Under the pieces are notes generated by a model that saw only the letters and a program-made list of their open reading frames with translations, searched no databases and was not told the DNA's origin. From Octopus vulgaris (lineage: Eukaryota), in NCBI GenBank assembly GCA_951406725.2, contig OX597815.1:152582001-152646000 (forward strand): a stretch of DNA of 64,000 nt, in the 5' to 3' direction. The position numbers were made by a program, and so were the translations under genes. This document shows positions 3,903 through 64,000 of the stretch, one piece after another. Every line of letters starts with the position of its first letter. Position 1 is the stretch's first letter.

Positions 3903-3938
<36 letters not shown>

Positions 3939-4221: not shown

Positions 4222-4253
<32 letters not shown>

Positions 4254-4558: not shown

Positions 4559-4596
<38 letters not shown>

Positions 4597-13500: not shown

Positions 13501-13595
13501 AGTGGTTTTACTTATTATATTATATTTATCATTCTTTTTCTACTTTTTGAAAAAATAAATAAATTTTAAAAAAATTAAAAATTGAAAAAAGGAAT

Positions 13596-13634
<39 letters not shown>

Positions 13635-41100: not shown

Positions 41101-44100
41101 CGCAACACAGCACTTGGTCCATTCTCTGATATCCTTGTTGATACTGGTCCACACAAAACAGGTTGATATCAGCTTTTGAGTGGAGCGAATACCAGGATGT
41201 GACAGAGAATGCAGAGTGGAGAAAACTTCTCGACCTTGTTTCTGTGGTATATAGGGGCGTTGGTGACCAGTGGAGATATCACACCAAATATGGGCCATGG
41301 ATGATGGTAGCGGAACATGCTGAAATTTCATAGATGACGAATTCCGGAGCTTTAGAAGCTCTTCGTCATTCTCCTGATTAGCTGCTATACGTGCCAGATC
41401 AATTGTAGCCGTGGTGTGGATAGCATTGATCTGCGTGCGTGAAAGTGCATCGGCTGCTAAGTTGGTGTGGCATATATCCGTTCGTATACTGCGATATGAA
41501 GTCGAGGTGGCAGATTTCTCTCGGCGAGTGGCGATCTGGCTTGGTGTTAAATGCATATACCAGTGGCTTGTGGTCAGTGTATATGGCAAAATTGGTACCT
41601 TCTAGCATGTGACGGAAATGCTTAATGGCCAGGTAAGCCGCTAATAATTCTCAACTGAATGTACTGTATTTGGTTTCCGCGGGTTTTAACCGCTTAGAAA
41701 AGAAGGACAACGGTTGGCATATACCGTCAACAAGCTGCTGTACTACACCTCCAACTCCGGAATCAGATGCATCAACGAGTAAACACCATGGGGCGTCTGG
41801 TTTTGGATAAACCAACATGGTAGTGTTGGATAACGCTTTTTTCAGGGCACCGAATGAGGCGAGTTGATCTTTGGTCAGTGCAATTTCCGTATTTTTGCAA
41901 GTTCGCTGACGTAGCAAATCCGTGAGCGGTTGCGCTATCTCAGCGAGATGGGGTACGAACCGTCGATAGAAATTCGCTAGACCGAGATATTCCCTTAATT
42001 TGCAGAGCGATGTGGGTGGTGGGAAATCCGCGATGGCCTTGACTTTCTCAGGAAGGGGACGAATTCCATCCTTATCGACGATGTGCCCGAGAAAATGAAG
42101 GGAAGCAACTCCGAACAAACACTTACTGGGGTTGATAACAACACTGTGTTTGCGGAGGCGTTCGAATAGCAGGTGATGGTGTTGGTTATGTTCTTCGCCC
42201 AAGTTACTGACCACGAGTATGTGGCAAACCTCTAGTCACCATGTCGATAAACCTTTGGGATATCTGTGTGGTGTTGTGTAAACTGAAAGGCATACGCTGG
42301 AATTCAAACATTCCGAAGGGTGTAATAACTGCTGTCTTCGAGATGTCCGCAGGTTCCACTGGGATTTGGTAGTATGCTTGCACAAGGTCGATTTTGGAAA
42401 AGATGCAAGCTCCATGCAGCGAGCTTGAAAAATCTTGAAGAAATGGGACCGGGTAGGCATCACTGATAGTACTTTTATTCAGCGATCGATAATCACTGCA
42501 AACCCGCCAATCAGTCGAGGATTTTTTGGGGGACGCAGTGTATCGGCGAGGACCAGTTGCTGCTAGAAGGGCGGATGATTCCGAGGTCGAGCATGTGCTG
42601 GAATTCCCGCTTGACAGCCTTGAGGCGCTCAGGTGGTAGCCTTCTGGGTCTTGCAGCAACAGGTGGACCACTGGTTTTGATGTGGTGGGTAACGTCGTGC
42701 TTGATCGGCTGGTTGTGGAATACTGGTCAAGTGACGTCCGGATATTCCTTCAGGATAGAACTGTGACGAGTCGTTGTTGTGAGCAATATAGTTGGGGTGA
42801 CTGTGGCCATACGAGCGGCTATACCGCACACAGTAAGCTTTGTGGTGCTGTCGATAAGTCGTCTATTTTTGATGTCTAACAGGAGACCGAAATGATGCAG
42901 GAAATCGGCTCCCAAGATAGGGGTTGGCAGTTTAGCGATGACAAATACCCACTGAAAGGTGCAGCGTAGTCCTAAGTTCAGTGTTAGGGACTGTTCACCG
43001 TAGGTTGAGATGGGTGAATGGTTGACTGCCTGAAGACAGACTGGTGTCTCTTTTCTTTCTCCTGAAGTGTTGGAGACAGGGATGATGCTGACTTCCGCGC
43101 TGGTATCAACCAGGAAATGCGTGCCTGTTACTCGATCGCAAACGAAAAATAGGCGACTGTGTGGGTGCGAGCCAGGAACTTCTGTCGCGTTCAATTCCTG
43201 GCTGTGTCATTTCCCGAAATAAATGAGGAAAACGAGCATGGTATCGTGCATTTTTGCGTCTGTGTTCCAAACTTTCGGTGGGACCAACACAAGTCATGTC
43301 AGTTGCGGGTAGCACTGGGTTGGCTTCGGGGCCATCTACCATCTCGGCGCGATCGGCTACTGCTTCGACACTGCATTCCACGCGATAGAGCTTGTATCTG
43401 GTCTATCAGGGCCTGTATCCGTGAAGCCCGCTGAGTGACCAATGCATGCAAGTCAGAAATTTCCGAAACACTGGACGCCAAAAGGAAAGGGTTGGGGGAA
43501 GGAATCGCTGCCTGGAATGACATGTCGACTGAAGATGTGTTTTCCGCTGGGGTTCAGTTCTGGCAGGGCCATTGTGTTCGCCGGAATTCTCAGTTGTTTC
43601 GTTACCGGGTGATGTGCAAGCTGTGATTCTTCGACGCGGTTGATGAAGCTGGTTCAGGGGAAGGCCACAATTCGTTGATGGGGTAACCAAATGTAGAGGT
43701 TAAGTGTGTATGTAAACAAATGCGTAAACCGATTCATGATTGAAAGGAATTTATTTACAGGGTTTGATTTGTTATAGGTACACTCCCTACAAAATGAAGG
43801 AACTCCTACGAGTTGCTAGAAATACAGAGTACATATTAGGAATGAAAATGTTTGTGTGTGTGCGTGTTTGATTCGAAACAGTTGTCTATCGGCACTTCGA
43901 ACATTTCTCTCTGCCTCTGCGGTCTGCCAAAACCTGCCTCTCCTGTTTCACCGGGTTTTATAATATTTGTGGCAGTTAGAAAGACAGACATGTTGCAGCA
44001 GAGTTTGTACCTAAATAGGTCAGCGCTTGTCCAGTTGAACTTCGCCTGTCAGAGGGAGATGATCAATCAATTTTTGACAGGACAAAGAAAACCTTTTTAC

Positions 44101-47100
44101 GCGCCTGTTGATCGTCGTGGTTTGGACGACCGATAATTCTTGGATTCGGTTTCGAATCTAGGCTTGGAGAAGGAAGTGAAAATTCTTACAAACACGTCCA
44201 AGTCAGTTCTTATTCATCCAATGTCCAAGTCAGTTCTTATTCTGAGTTAACATCCACTTTCACTGCTTCAGGTACACACATGTCTCACTTAAATACTCTG
44301 GATTTTCTTTGAGGAGATACCCTTCTTAACACCAACCATTTTATAAAGGATCTTGGGTATGTTTTATTGTAACACAGGCAATAATAAGATTGTCATCATC
44401 ATCACCATTTATCGTCCATTGTCCATGCTGGCATGGGGTGGATAGTGTGACCAGAGCTGACAAGCGGAGGGGCTGTACCAGACTCTAATGTCCACAACTA
44501 GATTGAACGTTGCACTCAAAATTACACTATCTCTTCTCATTCACCAATTGCTTTCATGTGTGCACTGGGGCCATTTTCTCATAGTGCTAGCACTGGTCAG
44601 GTTGTCTAGCATCTCATAATATTATACAATTCTCATTGCACTTTCATGTGTTTTTACAATCATGAAGACATTTTGAGAAAGTGAGATGTTTAAGTGATAA
44701 AGGAAGAATTCTGAGGATGCAGGTACTGGAAGTTACAAGAAAATGAGGATAGCAAGAATGACTTGAAAGAGAGGTGGAGAATGACATGACCGAATGGATG
44801 AAGCTAAGATACAATTATTTGTGAGATGGTTAATGATTCACTAACATCTTGAGAATCCAATTATCAAAGACAGTGTTACTTGCTAGAACATCAATGCTGG
44901 CTTTGGTAAAGTATGAGGCTCAATCACAAAATCTCGACAAGACTTAGAATATCTACCTGTGAAATCATTTGGTCAGTGAATGTTTGTAAAGGGTAAAAGT
45001 TTAGATTAATAATTATAGCTTTTTGTATGAATGTGAATGTTGGTAAATTATACTATAATTTATAACACTTAAAATTATGTATTTAAGGCTTACAAAGGCA
45101 GGTTACAAATGAAGAGCCAGCATGTGAGATTGAAACTGAAGTACCAAATAGATTTCTATAAGTTTTCCCTTGAGCACTAGCATTGGTCAGTTTCTCTTGT
45201 GTCCCATAAAATTAGACTATTCTTACTGCTCTTATGATGTGTTTTTTCATTCAAGGTGACAAGTTGAGAAGTGATGACAGAGAAAGAATGAGGATGCAGG
45301 GAGTGAAAGTTGTGAGAAAATGATGATAAGAATGGTGATTTGAAAGAGAGGTGAAGAATGACAAGACTGAGTGACTGTCAGTTGTGAGCCAACAGAGATG
45401 ATTTATGATGTATTAACATCTTGGCAGTGTGATAATTAGAGTCAAAAGTACTTATAAGAACATCATTTTCAGCATTCTAATGTAGGAGATTCAATAACAA
45501 ATCTCAACTGGAAATGTTTTTAAGTGGTAAAAATTGTTAAAGATAATTTCCTTTGTTTACAAAATCATTGTCCAGAATTTCTTCTTGATTTATCATCTTA
45601 TGAAGATGTCAGATTTTTTACAGTAGTCTGATGTGTGATATGAGATATCATCTCTCACAGGAGTTTCTTCCCAGAATGTCTCAGGCTTACAAGGGCATTA
45701 TAGTATTATAATATGTATTATAGTCTATATATATATCTCACTGAATGATCAAAAACAAATGTTTTTTATTGCAAAAACACAACTGTTTTCACTAACTGGA
45801 CATACAAATAAACATCTCTATAAAAGTTAGCTTCAATCTCCACAATTTTACCTTTATTTTCTTCTTGACTACCCGAAATATGCAAACATACTTTTTATTG
45901 GAATACCAGAAATAAACACATGGAGAAAAAGAAGGAAATAAAAATAGATGATACTAATAATAGATTCTCTATCATCGAACACAACTCTATTCACAAATAC
46001 AGATCAAAGTCGGCCCTTCGTTGATTTTTTTCTCAAAGTCATGGTCACAGTTTGCATGTTCCAACAACAATATAGTAGACATTTGAAATCTTTTTGACCG
46101 ATCAGACTCCATCATACTTAAAAAAAAAGTAGTAGTTGCGTATCTTTTCCTTTTGAACGGCACTTTGTAATTAAAAAGTTTTAAACTTTGTATACTGGTA
46201 GAATGTGTTTGTAAAACATCTTTTCTCTTGGCTTTATTGAGAAAATTGTATAGGTTGTAAGATATTTTGTCTTTAATTTCAAGCATTTTGGCAATTTTAA
46301 CTAATCGCTGAGGCCCATTTAGGTAAATAACATTCTGTGCATAATGAATATGTCCCTTCTATAAGAAACAGATTGCATATATTTAGATTTGTGAAGAAAA
46401 CAAGATACCCTTCCCCAAACCCTAACCCTAACCCTAACTAACCCTAACTCTAATCCTAAATCTAAAATAGACTGAAATGCAATAGATCGATACTAGGTCC
46501 ATAATTATGGGTGACATTTTCATTTGAGATCGCTAGAAAAAAATCCCATTTACCATAGCGGTGTCGTATGAAATTGTCACCGATAATTATAATCCTAGTA
46601 TTGATCTATTGCATTTCAATCTATTTAGGGTTAGTCAGGGTTAGGGTTAGGGGTGGGGGAAGGGTATCTTATTTTCTTCACAAATGTAAATAAATCCAAT
46701 CTGTTTCGTAAAGGAGGGACATATTTATTATGTACAGAATGTTATTTACCTAAATGGACGTCAGCCATTGGTTAAAATTGCCAAAATGCTCGAAATTAAA
46801 GACAAAATATCTTACAACATATAGAATTTTCTCAATAAAGCCAAGAGAAGAATGAAGTTTTACAAACACATTCTACCAGTATACGAAGTTTAAAACATTT
46901 GAGTTACCTAGATATTATGTCACAAAGTGCCGTTCAAAAGGAAAAGATCCGTAGTTGCTGCTACAACTACTACCACTGCTACTATCAGAAATAACTACTA
47001 CTACTACTGCTACAATTAGAAACATAAGTTGACAGTGACATTGAGATGTTTTTCCCTGTGTCTGAATCATACCGGTGACACCAATGAAAAATCCCTTCCT

Positions 47101-50100
47101 TCTTTTCTTTTGTCGGGAGAAAAGAGAATTTACAGTAAAAACAAACCTTCAGCTCTCCCTCCAGCATAAAAATTACTTTAACAAAATATTTTAATAGGGC
47201 AAAACGTGCGAAAAATTTAAATTAAATTAATGAAAGACAAATACATGAGCCTTCTCGCACATAAACACATTTATTCACATATATACAAACACATAAGCAG
47301 ACGCAAATATTGAAGTACTAAATAGTACAACAAATAATATTTAACCATGTGGAGCATTTTACATGCATATCAATATTCTAAAGTTGGACCTACTATTCCT
47401 TATCCTAAAGCTACTAACAGATAAAGAAGAAAAGTTCCTGACTCATTTCACCGTCTACTTTCAATCTTTGATTGTGACTCTGCTCAACCCAAACTTTCTC
47501 AGATTTTGCCTGCTGTTATCTACACCTACAAAGATTGCAGCTGTTTTTATTCCTGCTTTTAACTATCAGAATTATCCTAGAACCCCTGGCAGCTATAGAA
47601 GATTGTTTTTGTCAACCATCTATCATGTCGTCCGAGCCTGGCTCAGCTACCTACAAATCGAAACTGAGATCTGCGAAAAGGGCTCGATCTGCTGATCCTA
47701 TTTTGGAAAATTTAGTTAATAAGGTGAACAGTGATATCAAGCTTTCACATGAAGACCCTGAAATCAAGATTTCTCATCAAGAAGATGGTCTTACTAACAA
47801 ATATCTCAATGAGCAGTTGCTGTTGCTTAAACAAGAGGTCGAACACCTTAAGTCTGTTGTTGCTGAATTACAGAATAAAAAAAACTGAATCCCATTCAAA
47901 GTCTCCTATTGATGAAGAGCCACTCTTGATTTCTTCCCTAAAGACTTCCAAACTGAAGAGATCAAAATCGAAGCGGTCAAAGAAGGCAAAAGTTCTGGCA
48001 GTCGTTTCCACTCATGATCCTATCTGTGCAGATTCTTCCTCATCTGCCTTTTTGGTCCCGGAGGTTCCCCAACCTGAATTGAGGAGCGTACACTCAAACC
48101 CACCTGAAGTCCATTGTTCTCCCCAAAAGAAGAAATGTAGTCAAAACTCCGGTGGGGCAGATTTAGATGCGAAACCTGCTCAAGATCAAATCTGTTTGGA
48201 TTCTCCCTCGTTTGTCCTTCTCATCAATGCCATTGCTCAAACAATTCTGCATGATCTTGATGTGAGTTCATCTGGGGAGTGGTGCTCCTCCAAAACAAAA
48301 AGAGGCAGTGCAGTTCCAAACCAGGCGGTAAAGTTATGACCACTAAACCCATTCCTTCGACCCCAAAGGCCTACATAAGTGTGATGGCTACGAAACTGCC
48401 CTTTCTGATTTATCAGATGAAGAATCGAATGCCGTAGTTCACAGTAGAGAACAGAACGACCATTTTGCCCACTCAAGATCAGCAATCATTTATGGTAAAG
48501 CTGAATCCACCAGTGATACAAGCATAAACCGCCTAAAAGATGACATAAATTTTGTTTCCGTTTTAGTTGGAGAATTGCACTTTGTCAACGAAAATGTCAT
48601 TATCCATAAGGTCGCTCGGCTAGGAAGATTCCAAGTGAACTCAACCTCAGACACAAGACCACGCCCAATAAGAGTAATCTTTTCTTCCGATCAGGAGGCT
48701 TCAACCTTTCTGAACAGAGTTCAGAAGCATGCCCGGGAGGATTCTATATGGGTTTTCGCAAGGAATACTCACTTTGAAGTGTGTACAGGGGCCATTTTCA
48801 CTTATAGTGCTAGCACTGGTCAGGTTGTCTTGCATCTCATATTATACAATTCTCATTGTTCTCTGATGTGTTTTTACAATCATGAAGACATGTTGAAAAG
48901 TGAGATGTTTAAGTGATAAGGGAAGAATAATGTGGATGCAGGTACTGAAAGTTACAAGAAAATGAGGATAAGAACAATGACATTAAAGAGAGGTGGAGAA
49001 TGACATGACCAAACGGATGAAGCTAAGATACAATTATTTGTGAGATGGTTAATGATTCACTAACATCTTGAGAATCCAATAATCAAAGACAGTGTTACTT
49101 AATGGAACATCAATGCTGGCTTTGGTAAAGTATGAGGCTCAATCACAAAATCTCAACAAGCGTTAGAAAGTCTACCTGTGAAATCATTTGTTCAGTGTTG
49201 TTGTGAATATTTGTAAAAGGTAAAAGTTTTGATTAATAATTAAAGGTTTTTGTGTGAATGTGAATGTTGGTAAATTTTACTATAAATTATAACACTTGAA
49301 ATTATGAATTTCAGACATTAATCTGCAGAATACACTTGCACAGCCACATGGTGAGTATAAAACTGAAGTATCAAATTGATTTCTATAAGTTTTCGCCTGA
49401 GGACTGGCATTGGTCAGTTTCTCTTGTGTCCCATAAAATTAGACACTTCTTACTGCTCTAAATGTGTTCTTTCATTCAAGGTGACAAGTTGAGAAGTGAT
49501 GACAGAGAAAGAATGAGGATGCAGGGAGTGAAAGTTGTGAGATAATGAGGATAAGAATGGTGATTTGAAAGAGAGGAGGAGAATGACAAAACTGAGTGAC
49601 TGTCAGTTGTGAGCCAACAGAGATGATTATTGATGTATTAACATCTAGGGAAACTGATAATTAAAGTCAAAAGTACTTATAAGAACATCATTTTCAGCTT
49701 TCTAATGTAGGAAATTCAATAACAAATCTCAACTGAAAATGTTTCAGTTGTTGACGATAATTGTTAAAGATAATTTCCTTTGTTTACAAAATCGTTCTCC
49801 AGAAGTCCTTCTTGATTCAACATCTTATGAAGTTGTCAGATTTGTACAGTAGTCTGATGTTTGATATGAGATATCCTCTCTTGCAGGAGTATCTTCCCAA
49901 AATGTCTCAGGCTAGAATATGTATTATAATCTATATATATATATATATATATATATATGAGTATATATATATATATATATATATTTGTAACTTAGATTGC
50001 ATGTATCTGTGCGTGTAAATGTGTGTCTGTCTGTATGTGTGCTTCACTAAAACTCAAGAACTAACCAACTGATTTCATTCAAATTTCACACCTGCCTTAG

Positions 50101-53100
50101 TTATGGTCCATGTTGTCATGGGCCAAACAAAGTTTCAACGTCTTGCGTAATGTGATCCTGGAGCAATCTCTTATCTCTTACGCTATTTCGGTATTACTTG
50201 TCAGAAGGGAAACAATAAAATCTCTATTGTAATGTGAACTAATACATTCACTGTGATATATTTATGTATGTATCTGTAAGTATATATATGCATGTATATG
50301 TATGTTTACATATACATGCACACATATCAGATCAGATTGGAGCCTGGTGCAGCCTTCTGGCTTGCTAGACCTCAGCATGGAAAGCAGATATTAAAATACG
50401 ATGATGATAATGATGATGATCATGATCATGGAGCTTCTACTTTATAGATCTGTGCTGAGACAATCATATTCACTGTAATGAAAGCCACATATTTTTTAGT
50501 CAGATTATATACAATTTATATAGATATCTAGTATTGCAATGTCAGACAGTGTTTTTTGTATTGCATATACAACCTGTTAACATGATAATGAATCAGATAT
50601 TATTCATTAATTGATTTACATTTGTATGTCTGAAATTTAACCTTATTTTGTCATAGCATCATCTTGTATCCTCACCAAACAGATTTAAACTTTATTACCA
50701 TCTGTGTAAATAATTCAACTGTTTTTCTTGGGCATGCAACCACTCCACTACAAAATGGTATTATTGACTTCTGTAGTCCAATAAGGTCCAGATGTTATTG
50801 TGTCCTAAAACAAAATGTGAAACATATCTGTATATTTATGGTACTATTTTGGTATATTTTATAAAGCATTATTGTGACATTTTGTAATTAGTTGGTCTTA
50901 ATTCACATCAATGACAAATGTAGTACAACAGTGGTAATGTGAAAGGGATTACATATTCCTTGTGATGTTGTCCTTATATTAGCTATAACATCACATACAG
51001 TTTCTGTCAGTCACACCCTGCTACACAGGTGTAAGTTCCAAGTCCTCAAGTTAGATACAGGCTGCTTGATGCAAAATAATAAATGATAGTGTCTTTACCA
51101 TTCACCATCAGCTTCCATGCTCCCATCAATTAGATGGGTCATCAATGTCCCAGTCAGTTCTTATTCTGACTTAACATCCACTTTCACTGCTTGAGGTACA
51201 CACGCGTCTCACTTAAATACTCTGGATTTTTTTTGAGGAGATACCCTTCTTAACACCAACCATTTTATAAAGGATCTTGGGTATGTTTTATTGTAACACA
51301 GGCAATAATAAGACTGTCATCATCATCACCATTTATCGTCCATTGTCCATGCTGGCATGGGGTGGACAGTGTGACCAGAGCTGACAAGCGGAGGGGCTGT
51401 ACCAGACTCTAATGTCCACAACTAGATTGAACATTGCACTCAAAATTACGCTGTCTCCTCTCATTCATCAATCACTTTCATGTGTGTACTGGGGCCATTT
51501 TCTCATAGTGCTAGCACTGGTCAGTTTGTCTAGCATCTCATAATATTATACAATTCTCATTGCACTTTCATGTGTTTTTACAATCATGAAGACATTTTGA
51601 GAAAGTGAGATGTTTAAGTGATAAAGGAAGAATTCTGAGGATGCAGGTACTGAAAGTTACAAGAAAATGAGGATAGCAAGAATGACTTGAAAGAGAGGTG
51701 GAGAATGACATGACCGAATGGATGAAGCTAAGATACAATTATTTGTGAGATGGTTAATGATTCACTAACATCTTGAGAATCCAATTATCAAAGACAGTGT
51801 TACATGCTAGAACATCAATGTTGGCTTTGGTAATCACAAAATCTCAACAAGACTTAGAATGTCTACCTGTGAAATCATTTGGTCAGTGAATGTTTGTAAA
51901 AGGTAAAAGTTTAGATTAATAATTATAGCTTTTTGTATGAATGTGAATGTTGGTAAATTATACTATAATTTATAACACTTGAAATTATGTATTTCAGGCT
52001 TACAAAGGCAGGATACATATGAAGAGCCAATAAGTGAGTATAAAACTGAAGTACCAAATTGATTTCTATAAGTTTTCCCTTGAGCACTAGCATTGGTCAG
52101 TTTCTCTTGTGTCCCATAAAATTAGACTATTCTTACTGCTCTTATGATGTGTTTTTTCATTCTAGGTGACAAGTTGAGAAGTGATGACAGAGAAAGAATG
52201 AGGATGCAGGGAATGCAAGTTGTGAGAAAATGATAAGAATGGTGATTTGAAAGAAAGGTGGAGAATGACAAGACTGAGTGACAATCAGCTGTGAGCCAAC
52301 AGAGATGATTTATGACGTATTAACATCTTGGGAGTGTGATAATTAAAGTCAAAAGTACTTATAAGAACATCATTTTCAGCATTCTAATGTAGGAAATTCA
52401 ATAACAAATCTCAACTGGAAATTTTTTTAAGTGTAAAAATTGTTAAAGATAATTTCCTTTGTTTAATAAATCATTGTCCAGAATTTCTTCTTGATTTATC
52501 ATCTTATGGAGATGTCAGATTTTTACAGTAGTCTGATGTGTGATATGAGATATCATCTCTCACAGAAGTTTCTTCCCAGAATGTCTCAGGCTTACAAGGG
52601 CATTATAGTATTATAATATGTATTATAGTCTATATATATATATCTCACTGAATGTTCAAAAACAAATGTTTTTTATTGCAAAAACACAACTGTTTTCACT
52701 AACTGGACATACAAATAAACATCTCTATAAAAGTTAGCTTCAATCTCCACAATTTTACCTTTATTTTCTTCTTGACTACCCGAAATATGCAAACATACTT
52801 TTTATTGGAATACCAGAAATAAACACACGGAGAAAAAGAAGGAAATAAAAATAGATGATACTAATAATAGATTCTCTATCATCGAACACAACTCTATTCA
52901 CAAATACAGATCAAAGTCGGCCCTTCGTTGATTTTTTTCTCAAAGTCATGGTCACTGTTTGCATGTTCCAACAACAATATAGTAGACATTTGAACTCTTT
53001 TTGACCGATCAGACTCCATCATACTTTAAAAAAAAAAGTAGTAGTTGCGTATCTTTTCCTTTTGAACGGCACTTTGTAATTAAAAAGTTTTAAACTTTGT

Positions 53101-56100
53101 ATACTGGTAGAATGTGTTTGTAAAACATCTTTTTCTCTTGGCTTTATTGAGAAAATTGTATAGGTTGTAAGATATTTTGTCTTTAATTTCAAGCATTTTG
53201 GCAATTTTAACTAATCGCTGAGGCCCATTTAGGTAAATAACATTTTGTGCATAATGAATATGTCCCTCCTATAAGAAACAGATTGCTTATATTTACATTT
53301 GTGAAGAAAACAAGATACACTTCCCCAACCCCTATCCCTAACACTAACTAACTCTAACTCTAATCCTAAATCTAAATTAGACTGAAATGCAATAGATCGA
53401 TACTAGGTCCATAATTATGGGTGACATTTTCATTTGACACCGCTAGAAAAAAATCCCATTTTCCATAGCGGTGTCATATGAAATTGTCACCCATAATTAT
53501 AACCCTAGTATTGATCTATTGCATTTCAATCTATTTAGGGTTAGAGTTAGGGTTGGTCAGGGTTAGGGTTATGGGTGGGGGAAGGGTATCTTATTTTCTT
53601 CACAAATGTAAATAAATCCAATCTGTTTCTTAAAGGAGGGACATATTCATTATGTACAGAATGTTATTTACCTAAATGGACGTCAGCCATTGGTTAAAGT
53701 TGCCAAAATGCTCGAAATTAAAGACGAAATATCTTACAACATATAGAATTTTCTCAATAAAAACAAGAGAAAAATGATGTTTTACAAACACATTCTACCA
53801 GTATACGAAGTTTAAAACTTTTTAGTTACCTAGATATTATGTCACAAAGTGCCGTTCAAAAGGAAGAGATCCGTAGTAGCTGCTACAACTACTACCACTG
53901 CTACTGTCAGGAATAACTACTACTACTACTGCTACAATTAGAAACATAAGTTGACAGTGACATCGAGATGTTTTTCCCTGTGTCTCAATCATAACGGTGA
54001 CACCAATGAAAAATCCCTTCTTTTTTTCTTTTTTTATGGGAGAAAAGAGAATTTACAGTAAAAACAAACCTTCAGCTCTCCCTCCAGCGTAAAAATTACT
54101 TTAACAAAATATTTTAATAGGGAAAAACGTGCGAAAAAAATTAAATTAAATTAACGAAAGACAAATACATGAGCCTTCTCGCACATAAACACATTTATTC
54201 ACATATATACAAACACATAAGCAGACGCAAATATTGAAGTAATAAATAGTAAAACAAATAATATTTAACCACATGGAGCATTTTACATGCATATCAATAT
54301 TCTAAAGTTGGACCTACTATTCCTTATCCTAAAGCTACTAACAGATAAAGAAGAAAAGTTCCTGACTCATTTCACCGTCTACTTTCAATCTTTGACTGTG
54401 ATTCTGCTCAACCCAAACTTTCTCAGATTTTGCCTGCTGTTATCTACACCTACAAAGATTGCAGCTGTTTTTGTTCCTGCTTTTAACTATCAGAATTATC
54501 CTAGAACCCCTGGCAGCTATAGAAGATTGTTTTTGTCAAACATCTATCATGTCGTCCGAGCCTGGCTTAGCTACCTACAAATCGAAACTGAGATCTGCGA
54601 AAAGGGCTCGATCTGCTGATCCTATTTTGGAAAATTTAGTTAAAAATGTGATCAGTGATATCAAGCTTTCACATGAAGACCCTGAAATCAAGATTTCTTT
54701 TCAAGAAGATGGTCTTACTAACAAATATCTCAACGAGCAGTTGCTGTTGCTTAAACAAGAGGTCGAACACCTTAAGGCTTTTGTTGCTGAATTACAGAAT
54801 AAACAAGCTGAATCCCATTCAAAGTCTCCTATTGATGAAGAGCCACTCTTGATTTCTTCCCTAAAGACTTCCAAACTGAAGAGATCAAAATCGAAGCGGT
54901 CAAAGAAGGCAAAAGTTCTGGCAGTCGTTTCCACTCATGATCCTATCTGTGCAGATTCTTCCTCATCTGCCTTTTTGGTCCCAGAGGTTCCCCAACCTGA
55001 ATTGAGGAGCGTACACTCAAACCCACCTGAAGACCATTGTTCTCCCCAAAAGAAGAAATGTAGTCAAAACTCCGGTGGGGCAGATTTAGATGCGAAACCT
55101 GCTCAAGATCAAATCTGTTTGGATTCTCCCTCGTTTGTCCTTCTCATCAATGCCATTGCTCAACCAATTCTGCATGATCTTGATGTGAGTTCATCTGGGG
55201 AGTGGTGCTCCTCCAAAACAAAAAGAGGCAGTGCAGTTCCAAACCAGGCGGTAAAGTTATGACCACTAAACACATTCTGTTCGACTCCAATGGCCCACAT
55301 AAGTGTGATGGCTATGAAACAGCCCTTTCTGATTTATCAGATGAAGAATCGAATGCCGTAGTTCACAGTAGAGAACAGAACGACCATTTTGCCCACTCAA
55401 GATCAGCAATCATTTATGGTAAAGCTGAATCCACCAGTGATACAAGCATAAACCGCCTAAAAGATGACATAAATTTTGTTTCCGTTTTAGTTGGAGAATT
55501 GCACTTTGTCAACGAAAATGTCATTATCCATAAGGTCGCTCGGCTAGGAAGATTCCAAGTGAACTCAACCTCAGACACAAGACCACGCCCAATAAGAGTA
55601 ATCTTTTCTTCCGATCAGGAGGCTTCAACCTTTCTGAACAGAGTTCAGAAGCATTCCTGGGAGGACCTATATATGGGTTTTCGCAAGAAATACTCACTTT
55701 GAAGTGTGTACTTAGATTGCATGTATCTGTGCGTGTAAATGTGTGTCTGTCTGTATGTGTGCATCACTAAAACTCAAGAACTAACCAACTGATTTCATTC
55801 AAATTTCACACCTGCCTTAGTTATGGTCCATGTGGTGTCATGGGCCAAACAAAGTTTCAACGTCTTGCGTAATGTGATCCTGGAGCAATCTCTTATCTCT
55901 TACGCTATTTCGGTATTACTTGTCAGAAGGGAAACAATAAAATCTCTATTGTAATGTGAACTAATACATTCACTGTGATATATTTATGTATGTATCTGTA
56001 AGTATATATATGCATGTATATGTATGTTTACATATACATGCACACATATCAGATCAGATTGGAGCCTGGTGCAGCCTTCTGGCTTGCTAGACCTCAGCAT

Positions 56101-59100
56101 GGAAAGCAGATATTAAAATACGATGATGATAATGATGATGATCATGATCATGGAGCTTCTACTTTATAGATCTGTGCTGAGACAATCATATTCACTGTAA
56201 TGAAAGCCACATATTTTTTAGTCAGATTATATACAATTTATATAGATATCTAGTATTGCAATGTCAGACAGTGTTTTTTGTATTGCATATACAACCTGTT
56301 AACATGATAATGAATCAGATATTATTCATTAATTGATTTACATTTGTATGTCTGAAATTTAACCTTATTTTGTCATAGCATCATCTTGTATCCTCACCAA
56401 ACAGATTTAAACTTTATTACCATCTGTGTAAATAATTCAACTGTTTTTCTTGGGCATGCAACCACTCCACTACAAAATGGTATTATTGACTTCTGTAGTC
56501 CAATAAGGTCCAGATGTTATTGTGTCCTAAAACAAAATGTGAAACATATCTGTATATTTATGGTACTATTTTGGTATATTTTATAAAGCATTATTGTGAC
56601 ATTTTGTAATTAGTTGGTCTTAATTCACATCAATGACAAATGTAGTACAACAGTGGTAATGTGAAAGGGATTACATATTCCTTGTGATGTCTGCGAAAAG
56701 GGCTCGATCTGCTGATCCTATTTTGGAAAGTTCAGTTAAAAAGGTGATCAGTGATATCAAGCTTTCACATGAAGACCCTGAAATCAAGATTTCTAATCAA
56801 GAAGATGGTCTTACTAACAAATATCTCAACGAGCAGTTGCTGTTGCTTAAACAAGAGGTCGAACACCTTAAGTCTGTTGTTGCTGAATTACAGAATAAAC
56901 AAACTGAATCCCATTCAAAGTCTCCTATTGATGCAGAGCCACCCTTGATTTCTTCCCTAAAGGCTTCCAAACTGAAGAGATCAAAATCGAAGCAGTCAAA
57001 GAAGGCAATAGAACTGGCAGTTGTTTCCACTCATGATCCTATCTGTGCAGATTCTTCCTCATCTGCCTTTTTGGTCCCGGAGGTTCCCCAACCTGAATTG
57101 AGGAGCGTACACTCAAACCCACCTGAAGTCCATTGTTCTCCCCAAAAGAAGAAACGTAGTCAAAACTCCGGTGGGGCAGATTTAGCTGCGAAACCTGCTC
57201 AAGATCAGATCTGTTTGGATTCTCCCTCATTTGTCCTTCTCATCAATGTCATTGCTCAACCAATTCTGCATGATCTTGATGTGAGTTCATCTGGGGAGTG
57301 GTGCTCCTCCAAAACAAAGAAGGGGCAGTGCAGTTCCAAACCAGGTGGTAAAGTTATGACCACTAAACCCATTTCGATCATCCCCAATGGACTACATAAG
57401 TGTGATGGCAACGAAACCGCCCTTTCTGATTTATCAGATGAAGAATCGAATGCCGTAGTTCACAGTAGAGAACAGAACGACCATTTTGCCCACTCAAGAT
57501 CAGCAATCATTTATGGTAAAGCTGAATCGACCGGTGATACAAGCATAAACCGCCTAAAAGATGACATAAATTTTGTTTCCGTTTTAGTTGGAGAATTGCA
57601 CTTTGTCAACGAAAATGTCATTATCCATAAGGTCGCTCGGCTAGGAAGATTCCAAGTGAACTCAACCTCAGACACTAGACCATGCCCAATAAGAGTAATC
57701 TTTTCTTCAGATCAGGAGGCTTCAACCTTTCTGAACAGAGTTCAGAAGCATGCCCGGGAGGATTCTATATGGGTTTTCGCAAGGAATACTCACTTTGAAG
57801 TGTGTACTGGGGCCATTTTCTCATGGTGCTAGCACTGGTCAGGTTGTCTTGCATCTCATATTATACAATTGTCATTGTTCTCTGATGTGTTTTTACAATC
57901 ATGAAGACATGTTGAGAAAGTGATAAGTTTAAGTGATAACAGAAGAATAATGTAGATGCAGGTACTGAAAGTTACAAGTAAATGAGAATAAGAACAATGG
58001 CATTAAAGAGAGGTGGAGAATGACATGACCAAACGGATGAAGCTAAGATACAATTATTTGTGAGATGGTTAATGATTCACTAACATCTTGAGAATCCAAT
58101 AATCAAAGACAGTGTTACTTAATGGAACATCAATGCTGGCTTTGGTAAAGTATGAGGCTCAATCACAAAATCTCAACAAGCGTTAGAAAGTCTACCTGTG
58201 AAATCATTTGGTCAGTGTTGCTGTGAATGTTCGTAAAAGGTAAAAGTTTTGATTAATAATTAAAGGTTTTTGTGTGAATGTGAATGTTGGTAAATTTTAC
58301 TATAAATTATAACACTTGAAATTATGAATTTCAGACATTAATCTGCAGAATACACTTGCACAGCCACATGGTGAGTATAAAACTGAAGTACCAAATTGAT
58401 TTCTATAAGTTTTCGCCTGAGGACTAGCATTGGTCAGTTTCTCTTGTGTCCCATAAAATTATACTGTTCTTACTGCTCTTAATGTGTTCTTTCATTCAAA
58501 GTGACATGTTGAGAAGTGATGACAGAGAAAGAATGAGGATGCAGGGAGTGAAAGTTGTGAGAAAATGAGGATAAGAATGGTGATTTGAAAGAGATGTGGA
58601 GAATGACAAAACTGAGTGACTGTCAGTTGTGAGCCAACAGAGATGATTATTGATGTATTAACATCTAGGGAAACTGATAATTAACCCTTTAGTGTTCACA
58701 TTATTCTGCCAAAATTAATGCTTTTTCATCCTCTTTGTTTTGAACTAATCATGCATTATCTTGTAGTTATGAGATTTTGATGAGGTAGCTGTTAATTTTT
58801 AAAATGATATTGTAGGGTTGGTGTGAGAGACCAGATCTGGCCAGTTTGAACATAAAACAGGCAGAATACTTTTGGCTGGATATGGCCGGTTTAAATGCTA
58901 AAGGGTTAAAGTAAAAAGTAGTAGTTGCGTATCTTTTCCTTTTGAACGGCACTTTGTAATTAAAAAGTTTTAAACTTTGTATACTGGTAGAATGTGTTTG
59001 TAAAACATCTTTTTCTCTTGGCTTTATTGAGAAAATTGTATAGGTTGTAAGATATTTTGTCTTTAATTTCAAGCATTTTGGCAATTTTAACTAATCGCTG

Positions 59101-61976
59101 AGGCCCATTTAGGTAAATAACATTTTGTGCATAATGAATATGTCCCTCCTATAAGAAACAGATTGCTTATATTTACATTTGTGAAGAAAACAAGATACCC
59201 TTCCCCAAACCCTAACCCTAACCCTAACTAACCCTAACTCTAATCCTAAATCTAAAATAGACTGAAATGCAATAGATCGATACTAGGTCCATAATTATGG
59301 GTGACATTTTCATTTGACACCGCTAGAAAAAAATCCCATTTCCATAGCGGTGTCATATGAAATTGTCACCCATAATTATAACCCTAGTATTGATCTATTG
59401 CATTTCAATCTATTTAGGGTTAGAGTTAGGGTTGGTCAGGGTTAGGGTTATGGGTGGGGGAAGGGTATCTTATTTTCTTCACAAATGTAAATAAATCCAA
59501 TCTGTTTCTTAAAGGAGGGACATATTCATTATGTACAGAATGTTATTTACCTAAATGGACGTCAGCCATTGGTTAAAGTTGCCAAAATGCTCGAAATTAA
59601 AGACGAAATATCTTACAACATATAGAATTTTCTCAATAAAAACAAGAGAAAAATGATGTTTTACAAACACTTTCTACCAGTATACGAAGTTGAAAACTTT
59701 TTAGTTACCTAGATATTATGTCACAAAGTGCCGTTCAAAAGGAAGAGATCCGTAGTAGCTGCTACAACTACTACCACTGCTACTATCAGAAATAACTACT
59801 ACTACTACTGCTACAATTAGAAACATAAGTTGACAGTGACATCGAGATGTTTTTCTCTGTGTCTGAATCATACCGGTGACACCAATGAAAAATCCCTTTC
59901 TTTTTTTCTTTTGTTGCGAAAAAAGAGAATTTACAGTAAAAACAAACCTTCAGCTCTCCCTCCAGCATAAAAATTACTTTAACAAAATATTTTAATAGGG
60001 CAAAACGTGCGAAAAAATTAAATTAAATTAACGAAAGACAAATACATGAGCCTTCTCGCACATAAACACATTTATTCACATATATACAAACACATAAGCA
60101 GACGCAAATATTGAAGTACTAAATAGTAAAACAAATATTTAACCATGTAGAGCATTTTGCATGCATATTAATATTCTAAAGTTGGACCTACTATTCCTTA
60201 TCCTAAAGCTACTAACAGATAAAGAAGAAAAGTTTTTGATTCATTTCACCGTCTATAGAAGATTGGTTTTGTCAACCATCTATCATGTCGTCCGAGCCTG
60301 GCTCAGCTACCTACAAATCGAAACTGAGATCTGCGAAAAGGGCTCGATCTGCTGATCCTATTTTGGAAAATTCAGTTAAAAAGGCGATCAGCTTTCACAT
60401 GAAGACCCTGAAATCAAGATTTCTCATCAAGAAGATGGTCTTACTAACAAATATCTCGACGAGCAGTTGCTGTTGCTTAAACAAGAGGTCGAACACCTTA
60501 AGTCTGTTGTTGCTGAATTACAGAATAAACAAACTGAATCCCATTCAAAGTCTCCTATTGATGCAGAACCACCCTTGATTTCTTCCCTAAAGACTTCCAA
60601 ACTGAAGAGATCAAAATCGAAGCGGTCAAAGAAGGCAAAAGATCTGGCAGTCGTTTCCACTCATGATCCTATCTGTGCGGATTCTTCCTCATCTGCCTTT
60701 TTGGTCCCGGAGGTTCCCCAACCTGAATTGAGGAGCGTACACACAAACCCACCTGAAGTCCATTGTTCTCCCCAAAAGAAGAAACGTAGTCAATACTCCG
60801 GTGGGGCAGATTTAGATGTGAAACCTGCTCAAGATCAAATCTGTTTGGATTCTCCCTCATTTGTCCTTCTCATCAATGCCATTGCTCAACCAATTCTGCA
60901 TGATCTTGATGTGAGTTCATCTGGGGAGTGGTGCTCCTCTAAAACAAAGAAGAGGCAGTGCAGTTCCAAACCAGGTGGTAAAGTTATGACCACTAAACCC
61001 CTTTCGATCAACCCCAACGGCCTACATAAGTGTGATGGCAACGAAACCGCCCTTTCTAATTTATCAGATGAAGAATCGAATGCCGTAGTTCACAGTAGAG
61101 AACAGAACGACCATTTTGCCCACTCAAGATCAGCAATCATTTATGGTAACGCTGAATCCACCGGTGATACAAGCATAAACCGCCTAAAAGATGACATAAA
61201 TTTTGTTTCCGTTTTAGTTGGAGAATTGCACTTTCTCAACGAAAATATCATTATCCGTAAGGTCGCTCGGCTAGGAAGATTCCAAGTGAACTCAACCTCA
61301 GACACTAGACCACGCCCAATAAGAGTAATCTTTTCTTCCGATCAGGAGGCTTCCACCTTTCTGAACAGTTCAGAAGCATGCCTGGGAGGACCTCTATATG
61401 GGTTTTCGCAAGGAATACTCACTTTGAAGTGTGTACTGGGGCCATTTTCTCATAGTGCTAGCACTGGTCAGGTTGTCTTGCATCTCATATTATACAATTC
61501 TCATTGTTCTCTGATGTGTTTTTACAATCATGAAGACATGTTGAAAAGTGAGATGTTTAAGTGATAACAGAAGAATTATGTGGATGCAGGTACTGAAAGT
61601 TACAAGAAAATGAGGATAAGAACAATGACATTAAAGAGAGGTGGAGAATGACATGACCGAATGGATGAAGCTAAGATACAATTATCTGTGTGATGGTTAA
61701 TCCAATAATCAAAGACAGTGTTACTTAATGGAACATCAATGCTGGCTTTGGTAAAGTATGAGGCTCAATCACAAAATCTCAACAACACTTAGAATGTGTA
61801 CTTGTGAAATCATTTGGTCAGTGTTGCTGTGGATGTTTGTAAAAGGTAAAAGTTTATATTAATAATTATAGCTCTTTGTGTGAATGTGAATGTTGGTAAA
61901 TTATATTATAATTTATAACACTTGAAATTATGTATTTCAGGCTTACAAAGGCAGGTTACAAATGAAGAGCCAGCAT
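2790..61976 (+). CDS. Adhesion GPCR gene (HormR-GAIN/GPS-7TM, ADGRG-like), multi-exon, 5'-incomplete; tail extended by duplicated microexons; stop codon not located
   Basis: 13 core exons (2790-38266) join in frame via GT-AG sites with matching phases. They encode the HormR motif (C..WP.T..G....PC....ATRYC...W..P..SQC), GAIN, GPS (CAYWD...WSTNGC...CSCNHLTSF) and 7 hydrophobic helices. Five homologous 36-nt exons follow in frame. Confidence 0.9.
4110..4420 (+). mobile_element. SINE fragment with internal (CA)n
   Basis: Homologous to copies at 19690-20020 (opposite strand) and 33100-33460 (same strand): caaatccactcacaaggctttggtcggcc core. Confidence 0.6.
5853..6022 (+). CDS. aGPCR exon: HormR C-half (SYST...[26 protein letters not shown]...)
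   Basis: Acceptor tttttcag, donor gtaagt; phase 2/1; G.W..P.MSQC motif. Confidence 0.88.
6750..8270 (-). mobile_element. Degenerate Penelope-like retroelement RT
   Basis: [12 protein letters not shown] (cf. IKPADKG..VV), G.VIGT..GQNYINL.VGYVE (cf. G.AMG..AP.YA.LFM..E) and YIND (cf. YIDD); many frameshifts. Confidence 0.7.
9605..9836 (+). CDS. aGPCR exon: GAIN subdomain A helices ([10 protein letters not shown]...EQASRSVTR)
   Basis: Acceptor ccattgcag, donor gtaata; phase 1/2; matches ORF 9523-9840. Confidence 0.88.
9853..9990. repeat. Compound trinucleotide microsatellite (TTG/TAG/GAA/GAC/CAA)
   Basis: Direct reading. Confidence 0.9.
10167..10338 (+). CDS. aGPCR exon: GAIN ([12 protein letters not shown]...PETKAKTL)
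   Basis: Acceptor ttcctatag, donor gtacaa; phase 2/0. Confidence 0.85.
10407..11642 (-). mobile_element. Mariner-type DNA transposon, defective, with long (~165 bp) TIRs
   Basis: gagggtgaactgaaaagttc ... aaaccttttagccaccctc; internal taaactgacatctgactgtt mirrored; minus-strand [25 protein letters not shown]. Confidence 0.85.
11816..13750. mobile_element. Foldback element with ~430-bp inverted arms and very AT-rich core (probably decayed Penelope-like)
   Basis: 11816-12245 is the reverse complement of 13302-13750 (e.g. taggcaactcaaacagtgatagacataaacc / ggtttatgtctatcactgtttgagttgccta). Confidence 0.8.
14982..15200 (+). mobile_element. tRNA-related SINE (aggcaggGagctggcagaaacgttagc family)
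   Basis: Homologous to tandem copies at 18601-19000 and to a reverse fragment at 27095-27218. Confidence 0.7.
15280..15423 (+). CDS. aGPCR exon: GAIN (IYNSS...ISLPRSLF...[14 protein letters not shown])
   Basis: Acceptor ctttgtcag, donor gtatgg; phase 0/0; I.LP.SLF and F.....KL[FY] GAIN motifs. Confidence 0.88.
15636..15930. repeat. Degenerate (TG)n/(TGCA) microsatellite
   Basis: Direct reading; source of spurious C/V/H/T-rich ORFs. Confidence 0.9.
17000..18050 (+). mobile_element. Tc1-family transposase remnant
   Basis: MPKATKL...ILAL...[11 protein letters not shown] start; FQEDNAPIH and [15 protein letters not shown] (DD34E) in ORF 17574-17876. Confidence 0.85.
18319..18447 (+). CDS. aGPCR exon: GAIN (VIQT...[24 protein letters not shown])
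   Basis: Acceptor ctttacag, donor gtaacg; phase 0/0; S.IISA...I.NL.EPV motif. Confidence 0.9.
18601..19000 (+). mobile_element. Two tandem SINE copies
   Basis: aaggcag..agctggcagaaacattagca starts at 18601 and 18802. Confidence 0.7.
19690..20025 (-). mobile_element. SINE copy
   Basis: Reverse-orientation homologue of 33100-33460. Confidence 0.7.
20228..20365 (+). CDS. aGPCR exon: GPS motif (NQQCAYWDE...WSTNGC...[13 protein letters not shown])
   Basis: Canonical GPS with H-L/T cleavage triad; acceptor ttttcag; in-frame donor gttggt (see finding on the competing donor). Confidence 0.9.
21746..22604 (-). mobile_element. Mariner transposon, internally deleted
   Basis: TIRs tcaggttga.taaaa / ttttattcaacctga with TA flanks; [33 protein letters not shown]. 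Confidence 0.9.
22811..22908 (+). CDS. aGPCR exon: TM1 ([33 protein letters not shown])
   Basis: Acceptor ctgtttcag, donor gtaagc; phase 0/2; LS.I.C.IS TM1 motif. Confidence 0.87.
23632..23825 (+). mobile_element. 3' end of an RLE-type non-LTR retrotransposon
   Basis: [11 protein letters not shown]...L.KLGF...LI motif; same family as 34090-34860. Confidence 0.55.
24000..24291 (+). mobile_element. CR1/L2-like LINE ORF2 3' fragment
   Basis: T.GH.YK.........[19 protein letters not shown]......FK motif. Confidence 0.75.
24292..24862. mobile_element. Head-to-head palindromic pair of a tRNA-headed repeat with hammerhead-like motif; 13-bp flanking direct repeat
   Basis: Centre gcccatgggc (24581-24590); A/B-box-like tRNA heads; actacacctgata at 24279-24291 and 24863-24875. 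Confidence 0.75.
24885..26320 (-). mobile_element. Probable LINE 5' end/ORF1 remnant
   Basis: GC-richer block with broken coding-like minus-strand ORFs (25666-26001, 24885-25226); no exon signals; family not certain. Confidence 0.4.
27263..27386 (+). CDS. aGPCR exon: TM2 ([28 protein letters not shown]...AACK)
   Basis: Acceptor ttattcag, donor gtaagt; phase 2/0. Confidence 0.88.
27513..27734. mobile_element. piggyBac-type MITE
   Basis: TTAA-CCC...GGG-TTAA termini. Confidence 0.75.
28850..29015 (+). mobile_element. APE-endonuclease N-terminal fragment of a LINE (L1/Tx1-like)
   Basis: INACGL.......LL..L..LGLDV.AISET (cf. N..GL...DI..LQET). Confidence 0.5.
29608..29746 (+). CDS. aGPCR exon: TM3-TM4 start ([17 protein letters not shown]...ILAWG)
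   Basis: LLHY...WM and WG motifs; acceptor ttcaag, donor gtaggt; phase 0/1. Confidence 0.88.
30221..32205 (+). mobile_element. hAT (Charlie/ZBED-like) transposon, degenerate
   Basis: Termini cagtggttccaaa / tttggcaatcactg; [27 protein letters not shown] and PTSY.VEQ.FS remnants; TSD not recognisable. Confidence 0.75.
32784..32847 (+). CDS. aGPCR exon: TM4-ECL2 ([22 protein letters not shown])
   Basis: Acceptor ttgtcag, donor gtaagt; phase 1/2; completes WGLP. Confidence 0.85.
33100..33460 (+). mobile_element. SINE copy
   Basis: tttacttgtttcagtcatttgactg...caaatccactcacaaggctttggtcggcc...gggactgaacc. Confidence 0.75.
33784..33990. repeat. (ATGT)n/(ATGC)n compound tetranucleotide microsatellite
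   Basis: Direct reading. Confidence 0.95.
34090..34860 (-). mobile_element. RLE-type (R2/R4/NeSL-like) non-LTR retrotransposon 3' fragment
   Basis: AIQEQ, CRLC...[10 protein letters not shown] (CCHC), HDIV...IY, WWN.P...[16 protein letters not shown]. Confidence 0.8.
35150..35290. repeat. (ATGT)n/(ACGT)n microsatellite
   Basis: Direct reading. Confidence 0.9.
36908..37062. repeat. (GGAT)n microsatellite
   Basis: Direct reading. Confidence 0.9.
37247..37575 (+). CDS. aGPCR exon: ECL2-TM5-TM6-TM7 (CWLS...FLAPV...LSWLFAF...[13 protein letters not shown]...)
   Basis: CWL motif and N.LQ..FIF TM7 motif; acceptor ttgtag, donor gtaagt; phase 2/1. Confidence 0.9.
38201..38266 (+). CDS. aGPCR cytoplasmic-tail exon, 66 nt ([23 protein letters not shown])
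   Basis: Acceptor gattttcag, donor gtgagt; phase 1/1, in frame with the TM7 exon; flanks homologous to the downstream cassettes. Confidence 0.75.
38998..44190 (-). mobile_element. Ty3/Gypsy LTR retrotransposon, non-autonomous (gag mostly deleted; PR-RT-RH-IN frameshifted)
   Basis: LTRs 38998-39476 and 43692-44190 (TG...CA); 4-bp TSD AACA; PPT 39477-39488; PBS tggttacccc; [10 protein letters not shown] protease, DYRSLN/FSKIDL RT, DAS RNaseH, integrase TDRG.QF/YHP..NG.VERFH and GPY. Confidence 0.95.
45088..45123 (+). CDS. Tail microexon type A ([12 protein letters not shown]), weaker splice sites
   Basis: 36 nt at the position homologous to exon 38201; acceptor atttaag, donor gtgaga. Confidence 0.55.
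46140..46950. mobile_element. Palindromic foldback MITE with internal (CCCTAA)n/(TTAGGG)n; 8-bp TSD gtagttgc
   Basis: ~400-bp inverted arms g.atcttttcc...ggaaaagatcc; gtagttgc at 46132-46139 and 46951-46958. Confidence 0.85.
47625..48780 (+). pseudogene. LINE ORF1-like fragment (coiled coil + RRM-like), copy 1, frameshifted
   Basis: [16 protein letters not shown] coil; AIIYG..ES...D...V ... V.RLG......PRPIRV.F (CR1/L2-type ORF1 pattern); no ORF2 follows. Confidence 0.65.
49315..49350 (+). CDS. Tail microexon type B ([12 protein letters not shown])
   Basis: 36 nt; aatttcag / gtgagt; phase 1/1. Confidence 0.65.
51998..52033 (+). CDS. Tail microexon type A' ([12 protein letters not shown])
   Basis: 36 nt; atttcag / gtgagt; phase 1/1. 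Confidence 0.65.
   Translation, partial: AYKGRIHMKSQ
53049..53872. mobile_element. Foldback MITE copy 2
   Basis: Same arms and same flanks. Confidence 0.85.
54549..55702 (+). pseudogene. LINE ORF1-like fragment copy 2 (one frameshift near 55220)
   Basis: ORFs 54459-55262 and 55202-55702. Confidence 0.65.
56690..57832 (+). pseudogene. LINE ORF1-like fragment copy 3 (open for ~380 codons, 5'-truncated)
   Basis: ORF 56684-57832. Confidence 0.65.
58335..58370 (+). CDS. Tail microexon type B, second copy (identical to 49315-49350)
   Basis: 36 nt; aatttcag / gtgagt. Confidence 0.65.
58685..58905. mobile_element. piggyBac-type MITE, unique to this array unit
   Basis: TTAA-ccctttag...ctaaaggg-TTAA; absent from the paralogous site near 49661. 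Confidence 0.85.
58929..59751. mobile_element. Foldback MITE copy 3
   Basis: Same arms and same flanks. Confidence 0.85.
60285..61420 (+). pseudogene. LINE ORF1-like fragment copy 4 (small deletions)
   Basis: ORFs 60285-60578 and 60467-61564. Confidence 0.65.
61941..61976 (+). CDS. Tail microexon type A, second copy (exon identical to 45088-45123)
   Basis: 36 nt; atttcag / gtgagt. Confidence 0.65.
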
Positions 61977-63799: not shown

Positions 63800-64000
63800 G
63801 TAGTAGCTGCTACAACTACTACCACTGCTACTATCAGAAATAACTACTACTACTACTGCTACAATTAGAAACATAAGTTGACAGTGACATCGAGATGTTT
63901 TTCCCTGTGTCTGAATCATACTGGTGACACCAATGAAAAATCCCTTTCTTTTTTTCTTTTGTTGGGAGAAAAGAGAATTTACAGTAACAACAAACCTTCA

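Follow-up and report, generated by a model that had tools for sequence, protein, structure and literature searches.

The receptor gene and its micro-exon array

The window analysed here is a 64,000-nt stretch of the Octopus vulgaris genome (assembly GCA_951406725.2, contig OX597815.1, positions 152,582,001 to 152,646,000, forward strand). It contains a gene for a G-protein-coupled receptor (GPCR) of the adhesion type (class B2) with an intact frame, followed at its 3′ end by an array of six micro-exons that would encode the cytoplasmic tail and are absent from the current annotation of the locus. Our model of the gene (positions 2790 to 61976) comprises 18 exons encoding 699 amino acids with no stop codons.

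The GAIN/GPS ectodomain lies directly before the first transmembrane helix (TM1). Its GPS sequence, in which the H-L/T site can be read, scored 58.2 bits against Pfam PF01825 (positions 20231-20365; cut-off 22.5). The reading frame through TM1 to TM7 is open, and the seven-transmembrane (7TM) domain is of the secretin type. The PF00002 profile gave 84.3 bits for the Octopus bimaculoides orthologue P0001 and 14.5 bits, which is below the cut-off, for the TM5-7 exon of the window by itself. The best structural matches of the 7TM domain were the solved ADGRG2/G6 structures, and the AlphaFold model of P0003 (A0A0L8FLR8), which belongs to the UniRef cluster of P0001, contains seven helices with a mean predicted local distance difference test (pLDDT) score of 68. 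Autoproteolysis and tethered-agonist signalling through G proteins are predicted as traits of the class. A large N-terminus would fall upstream of the window; P0001 and the O. sinensis orthologue P0004 carry leucine-rich repeats (LRRs).

The micro-exons lie 3′ of the TM5-7 exon. The first, E66, is 66 nt long, and the following five (A1, B1, A′, B2 and A3) are 36 nt each; all are bordered by AG and GT and all are phase 1-1. The splice sites of A1 (aag acceptor, gtgaga donor) are weaker than those of the other five. An earlier note on this sequence had proposed that the order and inclusion of these exons could act as a code that switches docking sites on or off; A3 lies beyond the coordinates covered by that note. 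A crude scan for additional micro-exons picked up 3 of these six and one intronic candidate, and its result was set aside. The first half of E66 resembles A and its end resembles B, and an internal CAG/GTACAA after position 38233 is a possible alternative donor that would give a 33-nt in-frame exon.

All six micro-exons are carried by a tandem genomic duplication, whose units share a core that surrounds the micro-exon from about −410 to +300 or further. The splice contexts are near-identical. Upstream of A3, the flank is about equidistant from the A and B units; downstream it is A-like, as would be expected from unequal crossing-over or conversion. Within every unit there is also an older duplicate, with an identity of about 69%.

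Features of the O. vulgaris window (positions are those of the window)
Feature	Position	Strand	Remarks
GAIN/GPS ectodomain, seven exons	2790..20365	+	366/366 identity to annotated O. vulgaris protein P0073
GPS exon, cleavage site inside	20228-20365	+	PF01825 E=1.2e-15
TM1-TM4/extracellular loop 2 (ECL2), four exons	22811-22908, 27263-27386, 29608-29746, 32784-32847	+	Open frame, GT-AG borders, P0001 match
TM5-TM7/helix 8 exon, last base T (phase 1)	37247..37575	+	Sequence, 18-exon frame
Tandem duplication array bearing the micro-exons	37787..64000	+	Blocks 82-99.7% identical over 0.8-4.6 kb
Micro-exon E66	38201..38266	+	Starts AC, ends G; with TM7 gives YRHM
Micro-exon A1	45088..45123	+	Ends T
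Micro-exon B1	49315..49350	+	Starts AC, ends G
Micro-exon A′	51998..52033	+	Ends A; internal YEEP
Micro-exon B2	58335..58370	+	Ends G; identical to B1
Micro-exon A3	61941..61976	+	Ends T; identical to A1; duplication unit extends to window end
Long terminal repeat (LTR) retrotransposon in E66-A1 intron	39001..44190	-	LTRs 39001-39476 and 43698-44190, 94.1% identical; pol in pieces

Junction codons and candidate docking motifs

Each residue at a junction is specified by the final base of one exon and the first two bases of the next. A terminal T gives Tyr before AC and Cys before GC, a terminal G gives Asp or Gly, and a terminal A gives Asn or Ser, respectively. The split codons and motifs described in the earlier note were all found where it had placed them. 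Joining A to B creates the TAC codon of EEPA-YINL, joining A′ to B creates AAC for Asn while A′ carries its own tyrosine, and the TM7 exon yields Tyr when joined to E66 or B and Cys when joined to A. The note had overlooked that the joint between TM7 and E66 completes a YxxM motif. The 21 forward exon pairings encode Tyr (5), Cys (5), Gly (6), Asp (3), Asn (1) and Ser (1).

With the exons joined as they lie in the genome, the residues at the six joints are Y, G, Y, G, N and G, and the fully included tail contains three tyrosines, in YRHM, YINL and YEEP. Two exons end in T and have a known successor, and each of them precedes an exon that starts with AC, so linear splicing alone makes both junction tyrosines. 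A′ gains its internal tyrosine where the junction tyrosine is lost, resulting in one tyrosine per A-B pair. Because all 64 of the 64 possible inclusion subsets remain in frame, giving 54 distinct peptides of which 24 contain YxN, skipping is possible in principle. Two candidate features were discarded. Mutual exclusivity enforced by frame or spacing was rejected, as all exons are multiples of 3, the 54 peptides contain no stops and the introns between micro-exons measure 2647-6821 nt. A terminal T was ruled out as a rare feature, as 2 of the 12 constitutive exons of the gene also end in T.

For the YxxM, Nck and CaMK/PKD motifs of the tail we assume the consensus assignments as commonly given. 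The residues of the 66-amino-acid non-redundant tail were shuffled 100,000 times. In 1.9% of the shuffles, each of the three tyrosines had a YxN or Yxx[LIVMP] surrounding, YxN[LIVM] occurred in 3.9%, a hydrophobic-x-R-x-x-S/T site in 9.3%, and two tyrosines with an upstream acidic residue in 29%. Since the motif set was picked after the sequence had been seen, this enrichment is only modest. YINL fits both the Grb2 consensus pYxN and the Crk consensus pYxx(P/L) and is similar to YSNL in PEAK3, and YEEP fits the Crk consensus (PMC10279719). By consensus, YINL and YEEP are thus candidate SH2 docking sites, and their phosphorylation and binding are predicted.

Among human GENCODE isoforms, single-residue changes at split codons account for 3213 of 19,263 altered internal regions (17%; PMC12047184). 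At this frequency, residues that depend on the junction are ordinary.

Divergence of the exon copies and of the cytoplasmic face

Exons were compared with flanks of about 700 nt. Between A1 and B1, 17 of 36 nucleotides differ, versus 54 of 690 in the flanking intron (Fisher p=2e-9), and every 36-nt flank window contained 6 or fewer differences (n=620). Over the 11 whole codons, the synonymous differences (Sd) amounted to 1.5 and the non-synonymous differences (Nd) to 13.5. A1 and A′ differ at 5 of 36 nucleotides versus 21 of 683 in the flank (p=0.007); none of the five is synonymous, four being non-synonymous changes in whole codons and the fifth the terminal T>A. A1 is identical to A3 and B1 to B2, for which the joint probability at flank rates is 0.037. 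A relic exon-like site, considered as a neutral control, lies about 600 nt 3′ of each micro-exon and differs at 0-1 of 36 positions among the A units; the corresponding comparison with B1 is confounded by a unit breakpoint and a TA run. In the A units, the place equivalent to the exon (about 45685-45700, 52590-52605 and 62510-62525) has a relic acceptor followed by 13-14 bases from the start of exon A, with no donor. Because the divergence of the micro-exons stops at the splice sites, and length and frame are kept in 6 of 6 copies, the exons look translated and selected; they look like real coding exons under selection at the protein level. From these statistics we infer that selection acting at the amino-acid level probably made the copies diverge.

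In a tree of 19 GAIN-7TM sequences, the window gene grouped with P0004 (support 100/99), both grouped with P0001 (100/100), and these three fell within an 11-row octopus clade (100/100). P0001 contains LRRs, GPS, 7TM and a death domain (PF00531) above the Pfam cut-offs, and at the C-terminus of P0004 there is a remnant of a death domain (E=4e-6 among 10 sequences). A0A0L8FLR8 was assigned to the octopus-specific 'group 3', as its one member with a death domain, and is given there with GPS and death domain by Ritschard et al. 2019 (PMC6408891 supplement). By its clade with this protein, the window gene belongs to the group-3 adhesion GPCRs of octopus and is a predicted member of their death-domain lineage. 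A tblastn search for a death-domain exon gave no match within the window (best E=0.31), and the array continues past the window end; judging from the orthologues, the gene would end in a death domain or its remnant there. The O. bimaculoides orthologue Ocbimv22014869m is expressed mainly in skin (share 0.71) and sucker (0.17), with a Tau of 0.96, in an expression set for which gills of this species were not sampled (PMC6408891).

The extracellular and cytoplasmic parts of the receptor differ in conservation. Window and P0004 are identical at 357 of 366 ectodomain residues and at 47 of 47 in TM4-ECL2. Identity is 7 of 17 at the end of TM3 and in intracellular loop 2 (ICL2), 14 of 30 in the ICL3 region and 3 of 8 in helix 8, these regions having been drawn post hoc. 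When TM3 to helix 8 was divided by the helices of the P0003 AlphaFold model, the outer half was identical at 75 of 87 positions and the inner, cytoplasmic half at 51 of 84 (p=1e-4). The inner half was also less conserved than the outer when the window was compared with P0003 (p=0.003) and P0004 with P0003 (p=0.03), and ICL2 is 7/17 identical in all three orthologue pairings. ECL3 (4/8) and TM7 (14/18) are likewise diverged between window and P0004. In TM6 the three orthologues read FR/FR/LR-L/F-S/L-W versus LGL-T/S-W in paralogues, and they lack the hydrophobic ICL2 stretch of the paralogues. Coupling to G proteins may be altered in the lineage of the three orthologues.

The tails of the orthologues are built from other repeats. 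The P0004 tail contains 11 copies of a 12-residue unit, DPHMRDGNEAPV, in the same register as the micro-exons, and H-M and N-E-x-P are common to it, E66 and A. Two tyrosines lie just upstream of these repeats. If the P0004 units are exons, their joints would encode Asp or Gly, which would imply a terminal G. The P0001 linker contains about 15 Ser/Thr pentamers of the xQSTS type, as counted by eye, and the linker is without structure in the AlphaFold model of P0003. The conservation expected of the motifs under a splice code failed at the protein level, there being no tyrosine in the 11 P0004 repeats or in the P0001 linker, and no LxRxx[ST] site in either tail. The tail of an O. vulgaris paralogue, P0012, repeats YAEA-x-YLEL and YVNV/YVNA, which are like Grb2 sites and immunoreceptor tyrosine-based activation or inhibition motifs; it starts with TNEEQY, cf. 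TNEEPA-Y in the window.

Searches for proteins derived from transcripts that carry the tail returned little. An HMMER search of representatives (150 of 159 matches listed) gave no fetched protein with the tail words except the repeat of P0004 itself and two chance 4-mers. A search with the TM exons among longer proteins gave 1 of 44 candidates (P0001), and a search with the death domain among shorter proteins gave 0 of 32. Among 24 sequencing runs listed in a run search, 17 contained part of positions 37247-38270, and none is registered as RNA. The ESM Atlas returned generic 7tm_2 clusters only (0.80-0.81), which were uninformative. We found no description of the micro-exon tail in the accessible literature, a scope outside which most subscription journals fell.

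The window also contains several other elements. The retrotransposon between E66 and A1 is presumably of the Ty3/gypsy type, judging from its motifs. A 1.1-kb intronic insert is present in four copies (47625-48770, 54550-55700, 56690-57800 and 60285-61420) with sense-strand open reading frames (ORFs) of up to 394 amino acids that have a coiled-coil-like start and an RLG...RPRPIRVIF end; we take this end to be reminiscent of ORF1 proteins of long interspersed nuclear elements. One copy scanned against Pfam gave nothing at the cut-off. An element of about 820 nt resembling a miniature inverted-repeat transposable element (46139-46951, 53048-53873, 58928-59752 and 62980-63800) has inverted symmetry and CCCTAA/TTAGGG-like runs and was copied with the units. 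A very AT-rich block at 11900-13800 (GC about 0.20 in 12001-14000) resembles an insertion of mitochondrial type, and introns contain, at 16900-17900 and 21739-22475, what we take, from ORF motifs, to be fragments of Tc1/mariner-like transposases.

Interpretation and comparison with known systems

We give an even chance to the interpretation that the tail is a rapidly diversifying docking linker in which the dose of motifs is set by exon copy number. On the evidence of the DNA, the cytoplasmic linker grows in kilobase units, probably through unequal crossing-over; each unit brings one symmetric phase-1 micro-exon, so that any copy number stays in frame. The micro-exon copies, together with the whole cytoplasmic face of the receptor, would have diverged by selection on amino-acid sequence. 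The exons would be included in genomic order by default linear splicing and would form A-B modules of 24 residues that carry one LxRxxT site and one SH2-type tyrosine apiece, the tyrosine being placed at the joint in A-B (YINL) and five residues upstream in A′-B (YEEP). The tail would be a disordered multi-site linker ending in a death domain, and the number of modules and the lineage-specific sequence would tune the signalling of a surveillance receptor of skin and sucker. The pressure would come from something in contact with the receptor's cytoplasmic side, for instance an effector of a pathogen or a partner that evolves fast.

Several observations weigh against parts of this interpretation. 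The tails of the orthologues lack the tyrosine motifs, which weakens any essential docking role, and words of A or B occur in no fetched protein save one chance 4-mer. The exon-flank contrast between A3 and A′ is not significant (5/36 versus 38/674, p=0.059). An excess of pN over pS within exons is by itself not decisive, as each exon has about 7 synonymous sites (pS 0.2), and gene conversion homogenising the introns could add to the contrast between exon and flank. With so few synonymous sites, diversifying selection and an exon-sparing homogenisation of introns are inseparable; either would imply selection on the exons. Of four paralogue pairs, two likewise had a less conserved inner half (p=0.047 and 0.004) and two did not. 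The P0004 model lacks TM1-2, and given that its ECL3 and TM7 are diverged as well, its TM5-7 exon might derive from a diverged allele or a paralogue. The death-domain region of the P0003 model has a pLDDT <50. Finally, the annotated protein of the locus, P0073, does not contain the micro-exons; it runs out of frame past the GPS and terminates in intronic sequence.

Another explanation, which we consider rather unlikely, is that, between the 7TM and death domains, the tail acts as a variable spacer or decoy and diversifies to escape pathogen effectors or proteases, the tyrosines and LxRxxT sites being incidental. The three orthologues carry three unrelated-looking repeats, two of them without repeat tyrosines, their ICL2 is equally diverged in every pairing, and the orthologue is expressed in skin (PMC6408891). 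However, the tyrosine contexts exceed those of the shuffled tails, the internal tyrosine of A′ is gained exactly where the junction tyrosine is lost, exon copies of the same type are identical, and P0012 also repeats SH2-type motifs.

The splice code of the earlier note, in which combinatorial skipping of micro-exons is regulated and the split codons switch SH2 sites on (Tyr) or off (Cys, Asp or Asn), appears improbable as a whole. Parts of the proposal held, in that the micro-exons look coding, their tyrosine contexts are above chance and every subset is in frame with many distinct peptides. The near-identical splice contexts over introns of 2.6-6.8 kb, the weaker splice sites of A1, and the strict A/B alternation that keeps T ahead of AC would also suit such a code, for which the LPHN2 and LPHN3 tails and the micro-exon genes (MEGs) of schistosomes provide precedents. 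Nevertheless, linear splicing is enough to produce the junction tyrosines, ragged codons of this kind are common (PMC12047184), the motifs are missing from the orthologue repeats, and skipping a B yields Cys as often as Tyr (5 versus 5 of the 21 pairings). We regard the junction tyrosine as a probable product of the phase-1 exon architecture and not as a demonstrated regulated switch. A bolder version has a MEG-like array in an octopus skin receptor with LRRs, 7TM and death domain, engaged in a cytoplasmic arms race, in which exon skipping makes or removes SH2 tyrosines as a docking code per cell or condition that is rewritten between species, over a brief evolutionary span, by unequal crossing-over; we think it a shade less probable still.

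That the 36-nt segments are unused pseudo-exons in a duplicated intron, or in part an assembly artefact, is the least probable of these explanations and in our view very unlikely. The absence of the segments from P0073 and one block that is 99.7% identical over 981 nt speak for it. Against it, the hyper-divergence is bounded precisely by AG and GT, all six copies preserve length, phase and an open frame, the 12-residue register and H-M...N-E-x-P recur in the O. sinensis protein model, and the units carry distinct indels and 2-12% flank differences.

The tyrosine switch itself thus appears ordinary, and the noteworthy part would be a fast-evolving micro-exon tail on a skin-biased receptor lineage with LRRs and a death domain. 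In surface receptors that evolve fast, it is usually the outer part that varies. Here, two close octopus species share 97.5% of the ectodomain residues and 61% of those in the inner half of the 7TM domain, and the tail is built from different repeats in three species. This contrast suggests that selection acts on the signalling side of a GPCR expressed in skin, which is a candidate receptor for cephalopod barrier immunity or sensing.

The closest known system is the octopus group-3 expansion of adhesion GPCRs, which includes the orthologue A0A0L8FLR8 and for which positive selection was reported on branches within the group (PMC6408891). In the accessible part of that study, a death domain is noted in one sequence, no selected sites were found, splicing and intracellular parts are not mentioned, and neither a micro-exon tail nor hypervariability of the cytoplasmic face is described. 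Alternative C-tail exons of the latrophilins ADGRL2 and ADGRL3 (PMC11043342, PMC12236479) are similar in that tail exons of an adhesion GPCR could set its intracellular partners. In contrast to the octopus exons, which are young tandem duplicates differing between close species and whose regulation is hypothetical, the latrophilin variants were found by experiment to be regulated and act via G protein, arrestin and PDZ binding. Schistosome MEGs (PMC4350168) share very small symmetrical exons, a high dN/dS and transposon-rich surroundings with the octopus array, and accelerated non-synonymous evolution was found in both. However, MEGs consist mostly of micro-exons, encode secreted proteins and have documented alternative splicing, whereas in the octopus gene 6 of the 18 window exons are micro-exons, all of them cytoplasmic, and the product is a membrane receptor. 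Dscam arrays (PMC3236188) are also tandem duplicated exons under selection, but these are mutually exclusive and extracellular; the octopus exons can be included jointly in frame, and nothing was seen that enforces exclusion, no search for docking/selector RNA pairing having been made. The ragged codons catalogued with Biosurfer (PMC12047184) are the same phenomenon as the junction-dependent residue described here, with the difference that in the octopus receptor this residue would be the phospho-acceptor of a predicted motif.

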